Of a stretch of 64,000 nucleotides of DNA, positions 23,463 through 28,443 are shown piece by piece. Position 1 is the first letter of the stretch; every line of letters starts with the position of its first letter. Under the pieces are notes generated by a model. The model was not told where the DNA came from, did not search any database, and worked only from the letters and a program-made list of their open reading frames with translations. The DNA is from Lingula anatina (lineage: Eukaryota > Animalia > Brachiopoda), in NCBI GenBank assembly GCA_051362555.1, contig CM120647.1:17708651-17772650 (forward strand). The letters run 5' to 3'. Both the position numbers and the translations under genes were made by a program.

Positions 23463-23596
23463 TTACAGTTTTGCTTTTAATTGCTTTGCTGCTCTCTTTC
23501 TGAGCTCCCGGCGGAGAATCTTTCCACTTGGAGACTTTGGTATTTCAGTGACGAATTCCACGCCGCCCCGTAGACGCTTGTGGGGCGCCAAGTGCT
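23463..23596 (-). CDS. 4CL/luciferase-like acyl-CoA synthetase, terminal exon 11b ([43 protein letters not shown])
   Basis: CAG acceptor; catalytic-Lys motif [14 protein letters not shown]1 AKL then TAA; same length (134 nt) as exon 11a. Confidence 0.88.
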
Positions 23597-23658
23597 CTGG
23601 AAGGAGTAGAAATGATGTAGGTAGATACGTCACAATTAATTTATCAAATCTCTTTTAA

Positions 23659-24260
23659 AGCAATAATAACTCTTCCTTTGAGATTCAAAATTCCGCATGA
23701 AATACATTGTAAACAACGCATGGAAATATATTCTATTGTATTTTACCACTAAAACGGCCGTTATTGTAGTAAAACTAAAATCTGTGCTTGTCAATAGGGC
23801 TTTCGATGCTTTCATCAAGGCATTCGTTGCTAATGACGTAATGGTGTCACGCGGATTCTCGCGTTCATTCGAGACCAAAATAACATATGCGGACGCAGAC
23901 GTAAGTTGCGAGTTTTTGTACAGTGCTTCGGATAATGAAAAGCCCAGGATGGCACACATTGTGGATATTAATGTATTTTTAACAAAAAGACGAATATATC
24001 TCATGAATCTTATATAGTGTTGTTGTTGTCTGCTTTTCCCGCGGTTTTAAGTAGGTCAACAGTGACTATGCGATGTCAGAGAGAGCTCCGTCAGTTAAAA
24101 TCTCTTAAGAGATTTTAACAAAAAACCGTACGTTTAGGAAAAAACCCTGGATTAACTTTGAATGCAGGAATGGGGTCGCTGACCATTGGTAAGTACGGGA
24201 AAATTGCCGTTTACTCCAGGAAAATCCAATTTTTGGCCAAAATGAAGAGTTATTATGACT
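23659..24260. mobile_element. Kolobok-like MITE in intron 10b
   Basis: TTAA|AGCAATAATAACTCTTC ... GAAGAGTTATTATGACT|TTAA. Same family as 2404-2740, including the 26-bp palindrome at 24094-24119. Absent from paralogous intron 10a. Confidence 0.8.
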
Positions 24261-24377
24261 TTAACAGGTACGGGAGAGAACTTCAAGGCGACTTCATTTT
24301 TATGTATAGTGTTTGTTCACTGATATGTAAGCGTTTTCTAATTGATATAATTTGAGCAAACTATCAAACATTCTCAC

Positions 24378-24543
24378 CTGCGACGAAATCGGATATATCT
24401 TGAACAGTAGCCGTGACGTCATGTTTTAATATGACGTAAGCTTTGGGCAGCTCGCCCGCTATCTCATCTGGGACTCCAATTACAGCTACGTCAGCAACAG
24501 CAGGGTGGGTGTGGATCAGGTTTTCAAGTTCTGCAGGAGCCAC
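24378..24543 (-). CDS. Acyl-CoA synthetase exon 10b (VAPAELENLIHTHPAVADVAVIGVPDEIAGELPKAYV...)
   Basis: TAG acceptor, GTGAG donor, 166 nt, canonical VAPAELE...GELPKA motifs. Confidence 0.88.
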
Positions 24544-24761
24544 CTAGCGATACATTTTCAGACTATTTACAAAAAGAGAAATGAGAACAAAGAAAATTCG
24601 GTTTGAAATCACAGGCGGCTGGACTATATATGTGTTAGCATTACTGTAAATGAAAGTTGCTAAAAGGAACGGGGGCTGAATCATAAGTTTTGTGTAAGAA
24701 TGCTCCATGAATCCACTTACAGCATAATTTTCATATACTGTGAAGTAATCTTCTGTCTTAC

Positions 24762-24844
24762 CTGAAATCCCTTGTATTTAATGAGTTCCTTTAGCCTGTC
24801 TACCACATAGAAATATCCTTCTTCGTCATAATGCCCAATGTCAC
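24762..24844 (-). CDS. Acyl-CoA synthetase exon 9b ([28 protein letters not shown])
   Basis: TAG acceptor, GTAAG donor, 83 nt, hinge motif [11 protein letters not shown]. Confidence 0.9.
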
Positions 24845-25051
24845 CTAAAAGAACATCGATCAACATCTTGTTAATATTTCCAACCGCATATAGAGCCAAT
24901 TAAATCTAGTACCATCTTAAGTCTGTGATAACAAGTCAATAATCTTATAATATTCTTGGTTTTGCAAATATCATCAAAAGTGAAAGTAAAGTGGCAACTT
25001 TATCCTAATCTGCTCGTTCAAAATCTAAATGCAACAAGAGATTGTAAAAAC

Positions 25052-25196
25052 CTGTGTGAAACCACTCGTCTTTGTCAATACACTCAGCAGTGGCTTGAGG
25101 AAGGTTGAAGTACCCTTTCATCACTTGGGGCCCACGGAACCAGAGTTCGCCATCTTGATTGGCACCAAGAACCTGTTTGGTTTCCGGGTCCACTAC
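25052..25196 (-). CDS. Acyl-CoA synthetase exon 8b ([48 protein letters not shown])
   Basis: CAG acceptor, GT donor, 145 nt, [14 protein letters not shown] motif. Confidence 0.88.
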
Positions 25197-26968: not shown

Positions 26969-27110
26969 TACTATTATATTTATACATATTCCTTCCATGT
27001 ATAAATATATCCGCTTCTTCATATAATATAATTTATTCATCAAGTTTAAAATTAAACACGTCAGTCACCTGTGAGTTTTTAATTTTTTACTATTTTCTCT
27101 TAGGCATTTA

Positions 27111-27325
27111 GGGCGTATTCCCAGAGCTTTTAGATAGATCTATCCCCGCGGGAAGTCTCACTAGATTACTGTCCGATAATCCGGCTTAAATGTCCGTCCC
27201 GCCTACTACAAGCTGTAAGGGGGCAATTAACTTTCGTGCCCGCTCGGCTAACAGCTATTTAGCGTGAACCCCCAGGGAGTTAGGTCGATCTAGTTTGGAT
27301 CGATCTAATCTCTGGGAATGGGGTC
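27111..27325. mobile_element. PIF/Harbinger (Tourist-like) MITE in intron 7b
   Basis: TTA|GGGCGTATTCCCAGAG ... CTCTGGGAATGGGGTC|TTA; same family as 10169-10393. Confidence 0.8.
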
Positions 27326-27598
27326 TTAGAATGAGATAGCTGAAGCTTTGGGGATTCTGATGCCATCAATTAAGTTTACTCTCAATAATTAGATGTCAAA
27401 GGTATCCTGGAGATGGGCTTCTGTGGGGGAGTGCGGACATAGGGCTACCCATTTATATCACCTACTTTTTTTACGCCAAAACCAGGACAGCTCCTGATTT
27501 TAAAATAAATTCCAAATTTAGATTCCTCCTGTCCATTATCTTTAAATTGTTTGTCACAGCATTGCTAACAGCATGAGAATTTTTTTAATTTGGCCTAC

Positions 27599-27705
27599 TT
27601 TGCATTCCGTATCTGGCACCAGTATTCCACAGGATCCAGACTTTCTTGGAAAGCAATTGACTCTAGGGGGTGCCAGCAACGCGCTACTCTCAGTAAGGCC
27701 ATACC
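27599..27705 (-). CDS. Acyl-CoA synthetase exon 7b (GYGLTESSALLAPPRVNCFPRKSGSCGILVPDTECK)
   Basis: TAG acceptor, GTAGG donor, 107 nt (one codon shorter than 7a, in frame), GYGLTE motif. Confidence 0.88.
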
Positions 27706-27789
27706 CTAAAATACATATATTTTTCATAAGTGTATTTTTATGTTGTTTTAAATGTCCAAATTTCAAAGATATTTTGAAAGAGTTGATAA

Positions 27790-28008
27790 AGCCCCCTTTA
27801 CACTGGACGGCGTCCTTTCTGCATCACGTAGTACGGCCCCGTTTGAGAGTAAAAAAATAATACTTTGCATGCTGACAACTGGCCGATCATTGAGGATTCA
27901 TTTTGCAACCAGAGCGATGTTTGTGCCTCCTTTCTACGACCACAGCGATGCCAGATGCATGGTCTCACAAAGGACGCAGAAAGGACGCCGTCCAATGTAA
28001 AGGGGGTT
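27790..28008. mobile_element. PIF/Harbinger-like MITE in intron 6b
   Basis: TAA|AGCCCCCTTTACACTGGACGGCGTCCTTTCTGC ... GCAGAAAGGACGCCGTCCAATGTAAAGGGGGTT|TAA (~33-bp TIRs, 3-bp TSD). Absent from intron 6a. Confidence 0.85.
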
Positions 28009-28274
28009 TAACTATGCACTCGCTGAGATTAAATCAAGAAAACAATGCTGCTAAGGCAATGACAAATCTATTTTAGGCAATATTGCAGCCGTTTTGATTA
28101 GCTGTCAGTTTAGAATTCACAACATAATACTTATAGGTAGCAATAAGAAACACTTACAATGCGTCACAAGAACCTGAAAGAAATTAAAGAGAGTGTAGGC
28201 TATCTGAAATAATTTTTGGGGAAATGATAAGAACTATGTTATTTTATATCATTTTCAAAGGTTATTACAAGTAC

Positions 28275-28443
28275 CTTGTCCAATAGCTATTCCCAACCGT
28301 TTCTGTATGGCGATCTCAGTATTCTTGCCTAGTGGGGCAGCTCCGCTTAGAATGTCTCGCACACAAGAAAGGTCATACTTATCTACCAGCGGGTTCTTTG
28401 CCAGATGAATGACTGTAGGGGGCACACAGTGCAAGACGCTACC
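28275..28443 (-). CDS. Acyl-CoA synthetase exon 6b (GSVLHCVPPTVIHLAKNPLVDKYDLSCVRDILSGAAPLGKNTEIAIQKRLGIAIGQ)
   Basis: TAG acceptor, GT donor, 169 nt, YDLS and SGAAPL motifs. Confidence 0.88.

Follow-up and report, generated by a model that had tools for sequence, protein, structure and literature searches.

A second, selectively conserved set of exons 6–11 in an acyl-CoA ligase gene of Lingula anatina, a candidate alternative 3' half

Organization of the locus

The 64,000-nucleotide (nt) stretch analysed here, hereafter the window, belongs to contig CM120647.1 of the brachiopod Lingula anatina, and all coordinates are positions in it. On its minus strand lies a gene predicted to encode an acyl-CoA ligase, whose last six exons are present twice. 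Exons 1–4 (40179–38086) are followed by three homologous exons 5.1, 5.2 and 5.3 (36648–35240), by a first set of exons 6–11, termed block a (32705–30596), and by a second set, termed block b (28443–23463). Block b and its possible role as an alternative 3' half of the gene are the subject of this work.

Exon 1 (40060–40179) starts with the ATG at 40179. Exon 2 (39058–39265) matches the Pfam domain AMP-binding (PF00501, E 2e-16), and exon 4 (38086–38291), which follows exon 3 (38595–38701), carries the P-loop SSGTTGMPK. The homologous exons 5.1 (36468–36648), 5.2 (36032–36212) and 5.3 (35240–35420) have the same phase and an equal length of 181 nt, share 20–28 of 60 residues and cover the pocket segment with the LPxFH motif. 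Two of them together shift the frame, and the three likely form a mutually exclusive cluster. Block a (30596–32705), the form expressed in RNA run X8, comprises exons 6–11 at 32705–32537, 32162–32053, 31717–31573, 31372–31290, 31071–30906 and 30729–30596.

In block b, exon b6 (28275–28443) has a TAG acceptor, b7 (27599–27705) is one codon shorter than a7 and b8 (25052–25196) carries a Gly411Glu exchange in the DGWFHTGD motif. Exon b9 (24762–24844) is followed by b10 (24378–24543), which matches AMP-binding_C (PF13193, E 6e-14), and by b11 (23463–23596) with PSGKILRR and the final AKL-stop. The limits given in a preliminary description of this DNA, 28443 for the first base of b6 and 23463 for the end of the stop in b11, are correct, as is its statement that the catalytic lysine motif, the AKL end and the splice sites are retained in block b. 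Its six acceptors all end in AG and its five donors all begin with GT. Each of the six combinations of an exon 5 with a block gives an open frame, of 542 residues with block a and 541 with block b, ending in AKL-stop.

The products of both blocks carry the P-loop SSGTTGxPK, YGxTE, TGD and the terminal lysine motif GKxxR, and the C-terminal AKL is a peroxisomal-type signal. Exons 5.1 and b6 match PF00501 below the curated cut-off, and among solved structures exon 8 is closest to plant 4-coumarate:CoA ligases (4CLs) and beetle luciferases. From these features the gene is assigned to the 4CL-like or luciferase-like acyl-CoA ligases of the ANL superfamily. The GEICIRG box is diagnostic of true plant 4CL. 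Since the window protein has GELWFRG where solved 4CL chains show GEICIRG, it is not a true plant 4CL by this mark.

Homologues were collected by a profile search, from which 87 of 170 proteins were kept after a length filter of 450–620. The nearest are about 53% identical at best; hence a substrate is not transferable from relatives, and the direction of the changes between the blocks is not polarised by a true outgroup. Two single-exon protein searches found no protein of L. anatina or a close relative (best identity 50–66%). A scan of the window with Rfam and ARAGORN gave no match.

Purifying selection on block b

The preliminary description had counted silent and replacement codon changes between the blocks by hand and proposed that block b is under purifying selection. 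These counts (8/2 in exon 6, 3/0 in exon 9 and 7/1 in exon 11) are exact; the remaining exons have 8/6 (exon 7, plus a 3-nt deletion), 3/2 (exon 8) and 6/3 (exon 10). The 267 codons compared yield 40.5 synonymous differences (196.7 sites) and 14.5 non-synonymous ones (604.3 sites). The synonymous divergence (dS) is 0.241 and the non-synonymous divergence (dN) 0.024, with a ratio of 0.10 (bootstrap 0.05–0.17, Fisher p 2e-15); 253 of 267 residues are identical, leaving 14 replacements. The differences are distributed over the three codon positions as 6/266, 5/266 and 40/266. A codon likelihood model on 263 codons (5 at the deletion dropped) yields a dN/dS of 0.099 with a profile range of about 0.05–0.19. 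It rejects both a value of 1 (p 1e-13) and 0.55 (p 5e-8), the latter being about the expectation if block b were dead. The proposed selection is thereby borne out by a formal ratio that is not near 1.

A model in which block b evolved neutrally after the blocks separated fails for all exons together (P<1e-6) and also for exons 6 and 11 by themselves (P 9e-5), where 16 silent differences stand against 3 replacements (ratio 0.056), spread along the length of the exons. In simulations with point mutations only, at 0.10–0.12 changes per site, a neutral block b kept its frame and splice dinucleotides in 0.3–0.7% of 5,000 runs.

Divergence between the blocks is a mosaic. After removal of insertions, introns 6 and 7 differ by about 0.28, introns 8 and 9 by 0.115 and intron 10 by 0.12–0.17, and the highest divergence is found in exon 7 with a dS of 0.58. 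Among the a/b differences in exons 8–10 that persist across samples, 12 of 13 are found no more than 27 nt from an exon edge (p 2e-4, the width having been picked post hoc); this set omits five sites that show the letter of the other copy in other samples, and before their omission the count was 12 of 18 (p 0.03). The pattern probably reflects gene conversion of the cores of exons 8–10, with exon 7 left distinct, and contig assembly can merge such sites too.

It was also considered that block b is dead and has been kept intact-looking by conversion from block a alone. The likely conversion in the cores of exons 8–10 would agree with this, but conversion resets silent and replacement sites equally and hence does not produce a low ratio. 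Under the model of a dead block b, at most 15 replacements among 55 differences have a P<1e-6, the expected ratio of about 0.55 is rejected as given above, and the differences in exons 6 and 11 are spread out and mostly silent. Conversion from block a, which the preliminary description had named as a possible refutation of its reading, does not explain the ratio, and this alternative, largely refuted by it, is very improbable.

Remains of exon 5 copies upstream of block b

The preliminary description stated that block b lacks 5' exons of its own. For exons 1–4 this holds, since no second copy of them was found elsewhere in the window; for exon 5 it does not, since dead remnants of an exon 5.1 and of the beginning of a 5.2 belonging to this block precede b6. 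The tandem duplicated unit reaches from the last part of intron 4 into the beginning of the 3' untranslated region (UTR). Its first part (29210–30136, minus strand) begins at about 30136, which corresponds to 36753 in intron 4, and contains a degenerate, frameshifted exon 5.1 interrupted by insertions. This start follows the AATAAA of block a at a distance of only about 280 nt. The end of the preceding intron and the first bases of an exon 5.2 copy follow at 28943–29037 (minus strand), where the acceptor reads AA instead of AG; nothing more of 5.2 and nothing of 5.3 is present. Behind this remnant, homology jumps to the intron past 5.3 (28928–28732 to 35024–34852) in a collinear but weak match, whose score was equalled by 4 of 200 shuffles. 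The rest of 5.2 and exon 5.3 were likely lost by one deletion of about 1.16 kilobases (kb).

Compared with exon 5.1, the remnant differs at 16/56, 14/54 and 14/55 of the first, second and third codon positions, and the flanking intron at 65/275, in an alignment with many gaps whose pieces were picked by eye. The remnant has thus diverged evenly over the codon positions, to the same degree as the flanking intron, while the blocks differ almost exclusively at third positions (Fisher p 0.85 and 1e-11, respectively). Selection on block b therefore acted while its own exon 5.1 was dead, and its exons 5.1 and 5.2 died long ago. New relative to the preliminary description is that block b arrived with its own exon 5 copies, of which 5.1 decayed neutrally, 5.2 lost its acceptor and 5.3 is missing.

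These remains bear on another explanation, namely that block b was once the 3' part of a complete tandem gene that used its own exons 1–4 and 5.3 and was orphaned when two recent deletions took these away, the low ratio being a relic. Such a history would account for the copies of 5.1 and 5.2, would agree with the hint of a single deletion in the weak collinear match and would make a long splice past a polyadenylation (poly(A)) site unnecessary. However, both deletions would have to fit into the short dead period permitted by the ratio, there is no trace of exons 1–4 between the blocks, and what is left of 5.1 and 5.2 has been dead for a long time. We consider this history rather unlikely.

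Block b in other samples

Four of twelve contig runs were compared, over exons b8–b10; one of them, X8, turned out to be RNA, and the DNA runs X1, X3 and X4 represent three samples from three studies. Further copies in the genome were judged by depth. The introns of block b are present in all three DNA runs (29, 30 and 30 of 30 bins covered in X1, X3 and X4, respectively), and in X3 the exon cores common to both blocks have 2.1 times the intron depth. Hence, two copies exist, and the occurrence of block b in three other samples shows that it is not an assembly artefact. An arrangement of two alleles set in tandem by the assembly could appeal to the fact that no contig bridges the blocks in the stretch compared. 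It is hardly credible, however, in view of these depths and of a dS of 0.24 and intron distances of 0.115–0.28 between the blocks, against 0.014 between samples: in the introns of block b, 9 of 643 positions are unlike in window and X3, a proportion far below the distance between the blocks.

No stop or frameshift in b8–b10 is listed for X1, X3 and X4, in a table that omits changes near contig ends, and none occurs in the window. The Glu of Gly411Glu is seen in all three other samples. Variants linked to block b comprise a change in the final base of exon b10 that turns E into K (24378; X1, X3 and X4), an exchange of I to V in exon 9 (two samples), a change at position -3 of the b9 acceptor (24847; X3 and X4) and a silent one at 25083, while a silent variant at 24469 fits either block. 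The polymorphism counts of block b (2/302 vs 2/91 sites, p 0.23) comprise too few variants to gauge current selection. In the block a transcript of X8, Pro is replaced by Leu in the GVPDE motif (at about 30998, seen through 24470) and Ala by Thr nearby, so that block a also has replacement variants. Contig 3 of X1 joins intron 9 of block b to an a-like intron 8; it was not counted as it may be an assembly chimera.

The exon 7 deletion and the acid-binding pocket

Exon 7 holds 6 of the 14 replacements and the one-codon deletion of block b. Mapped via P0017, the deletion falls at P340-V341-L342 of tobacco 4CL2, directly after the YGxTE motif; with exon a7 alone as query, no solved structure was found. 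PDB entry 5BSW is tobacco 4CL2 without V341. Deletion of V341 in tobacco 4CL lets sinapic acid bind, and S243 is named as a pocket residue (bioRxiv 10.1101/2022.10.02.510496). New specificities through a single-residue deletion are also announced for soybean 4CL in a title cited in PMC3098103. The position of S243 lies in exon 5 of the present gene and is V in 5.1, S in 5.2 and Q in 5.3. We infer that the choices of exon 5 and exon 7 would vary two walls of one acid-binding pocket. At 27690–27670 in b7, a 1-nt and a 2-nt deletion four bases apart need fewer substitutions than a single lost codon.

Expression and processing signals

Four of nine raw RNA runs (X12, X15, X18 and X20) were mapped on 22600–40600, and the reads come almost all from repeats. 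The bins of exons 1–4 are at about 0, the a7/a8 bin reaches up to 1.65 (X12) and the b9–b10 bin 0–0.08; the gene is near silent. Since it is barely expressed there, these runs are uninformative on block b versus block a. Introns 8 and 9 are missing from the RNA contig of X8 (987 nt), whose loose ends agree letter by letter with a7 and a11, not with b7 and b11. Block a is spliced. If exon lengths are as in the window, the contig by arithmetic begins 30 nt ahead of exon 6 and ends near 30446.

For the splice from an exon 5 to b6 the preliminary description had proposed a length of about 6.8–8 kb, which agrees with the computed 6,796–8,024 nt. The acceptors differ, AAG at a6 and TAG at b6, and their 16-nt pyrimidine tracts are identical, though the surrounding intron aligns poorly. 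Such a pattern is compatible with a weak proximal and a preserved distal acceptor but does not prove this arrangement. In the region 28469–28444 an extra, out-of-frame AG occurs 25 nt upstream of the b6 acceptor that is absent at a6. A 22-nt match between intron 10a and the b6 acceptor, 73% complementary, was discarded, being within chance among 155 pairs. The AATAAA of block a lies at 30417–30422 (minus strand). Behind block b about 70 nt (23394–23462, minus strand) match the 3' UTR of block a, and then homology ends.

Block b might also be reached otherwise, by mixed splices from an exon of block a to the following exon of block b, by trans-splicing or from an own promoter that would give a truncated protein. 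The exon phases of the blocks match, so mixed splices would be in frame. Exon b6 and its acceptor, however, are as constrained as the rest (9 silent vs 2 replacement differences), which points to entry at b6, and a protein from block b only would be without the P-loop of exon 4. Such routes are therefore improbable.

Proposed use of block b

We propose that the intact, tandemly duplicated exons 6–11 of block b, which are under purifying selection, act as a live alternative 3' half spliced from an upstream exon 5, a reading to which we assign a probability of about one half. In some cells or at a low rate, the weak a6 acceptor (AAG) would be skipped. Transcription would continue beyond the poly(A) site of block a, and exon 5.1, 5.2 or 5.3 would be joined to b6 over 6.8–8.0 kb. 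The use of upstream exons gains support from the decay of block b's own exon 5 copies. With exon 5 forming one wall of the pocket and exon 7 another, 3 x 2 pockets could result; the residue missing from block b would make the pocket larger, in parallel to the effect of losing V341 in tobacco 4CL. Gene conversion would homogenise the cores of exons 8–10, and exon 7 would remain distinct. A more tentative extension is that one gene might give rise to six acid-activating enzymes via two independent splice choices, that block b might hold a natural specificity-widening deletion and that selection might shield block b from conversion.

Several observations weigh against this proposal. The junction of exon 5 and b6 was not seen in the four near-silent raw RNA runs, where the best 15 of 212 joints are repeat artefacts. 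The sole assembled transcript found (X8) is of block a, and no contig of block b occurs among those compared; as contigs drop rare variants, its lack is not evidence of absence. Block b is without the AATAAA of block a, and the next signals, ATTAAA at 22976 and AATAAA at 21781, lie in unrelated sequence. No convincing inverted repeat for competing RNA pairing was found, the best duplex (-41.6) being no better than shuffles (-42.5 +/- 3.1, n=12). The divergence peak in exon 7 may merely reflect transposons in introns 6 and 7 that obstruct conversion, and the shortening of exon 7 is also readable as a 1-nt plus a 2-nt deletion. At conserved positions, block b has Glu for Gly411 just before WFHTGD (G in 86 and E in 0 of 87 homologues) and Thr for Ile284 (I, L, V or M in 87 of 87), and Pro339 (P in 73 of 87) is lost or shifted. 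Finally, a death of block b within roughly the last 4–20% of its branch, or at most 34% by the upper bound, would leave the same ratio. The earlier claim that block b is translated as an alternative 3' half is partly supported: purifying selection stands, whereas translation at present is a prediction, neither a transcript of block b nor the exon 5–b6 junction having been seen in the RNA compared.

The last points lead to the alternative that block b is a former 3' cassette that lapsed recently, for instance by loss of its poly(A) site, and is now beginning to decay. The missing AATAAA and the exchanges at Gly411 and Ile284 would suit such a lapse. So would a neutral tail of 4–20% of the branch (0.005–0.024 substitutions per site), of a depth like the intron polymorphism of 9/643, and the variants linked to block b, with two replacements and two splice-adjacent changes among them. 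On the other hand, exons b8–b10 are free of listed stops and frameshifts in the window and the three other samples. The two replacement variants, I to V and E to K, are mild, and 9 of 87 homologues have K at the site of the second; splice contexts like the changed ones (A at donor position -1, AAG acceptor) are present at other exons of the gene, and block a likewise has replacements between samples. We regard a recent lapse as unlikely, if worth keeping in mind.

If block b is spliced as proposed, it represents a young and legible case of a tandem duplicate that outlived its own front exons as a cassette of its neighbour, with the dead exons as a record, and a small natural test set for the joint control of substrate choice by exons 5 and 7. 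The enzyme family concerned is the source of beetle luciferase and plant 4CL. If block b is a fresh relic instead, it is a clear warning that a low dN/dS between duplicates is not proof of present function.

Transposon insertions and repeats

The four transposon insertions that had been described in the introns of block b are real, as each has terminal repeats and a target duplication. Their family names follow from target-site rules. Intron 6b contains a Harbinger-like miniature inverted-repeat transposable element (MITE; 27790–28008, TAA). A second one (27111–27325, TTA) lies in intron 7b together with a Tc1-type element (25313–26968, TA), whose broken DDE transposase matches DDE_3 with E 2.7e-6, just short of the Pfam cut-off. 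Intron 10b holds a Kolobok-like element (23659–24260, TTAA).

More copies or relatives of the TTAA-flanked element and the TTA-flanked MITE are found at 2400–2745, 10175–10388 and 37600–37830. Repeats with a 160-bp internal unit occupy the intron between 5.3 and a6 (33247–34763) and are plentiful in RNA reads from other loci. About 8.5 tandem units of about 1.39 kb each, 92–98% alike, fill 10839–22629 in an array that starts about 830 nt beyond the stop of block b and is accompanied by an inverted partial copy at 22693–23049; the array has no Rfam or tRNA match. The number of CpG per 2 kb is 9–39 at 42001–64000 vs 40–101 below 42 kb, a pattern expected of a methylated gene body.

Comparison with known systems

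Within its own family, the gene resembles peroxisomal ligases of the 4CL and firefly luciferase type in its AMP-binding and AMP-binding_C domains and its AKL end. With about 53% identity only, the family assignment implies neither light emission nor 4-coumarate activity here. The tobacco 4CL2 mutant without V341 likewise has a single residue gone directly after YGxTE, at P340-V341-L342. It is, however, an engineered plant enzyme for hydroxycinnamates, whereas the deletion in block b is natural and accompanied by neighbouring changes.

In human ACSL6 and ACSL1, mutually exclusive fatty-acid gate exons switch a segment that contacts the substrate (PMC1543647). These acyl-CoA synthetases with duplicated substrate-segment exons are a parallel to exons 5.1–5.3; in them, however, one short exon pair is switched and there is no duplicated six-exon back half. 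For the red and green opsins, peaks of divergence retained under gene conversion are described, with a neutral cause of transposon type also noted (PMC3924837). The present duplicate is similar in that most of it is low in divergence and a peak lies near a probable functional change in exon 7, but here the transposons flanking exon 7 offer an equally good neutral cause.

The closest design is that of Drosophila CG42235, Pip and PGRP-LC, in which shared 5' exons are followed by tandem multi-exon 3' cassettes chosen by alternative splicing and polyadenylation. The cassettes of CG42235 have five to eight exons, and competing intronic RNA pairing occurs in some members only (PMC6191721). As in CG42235 and Pip, tandem homologous 3' units lie behind common exons, are compatible in phase and have a stop each. 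The present locus differs by two candidate cassettes that follow a putative three-way choice of exon 5 and by dead exon 5 copies in the duplicate. No description of this layout in a 4CL-like or luciferase-like gene was found in the literature searched, most subscription papers being outside it, and the papers searched on mutually exclusive splicing in insects make no mention of 4CL. Relative to the CG42235/Pip design, the predicted second-tier choice of exon 5, the dead exon 5 copies and the putative pocket deletion are what sets this locus apart.

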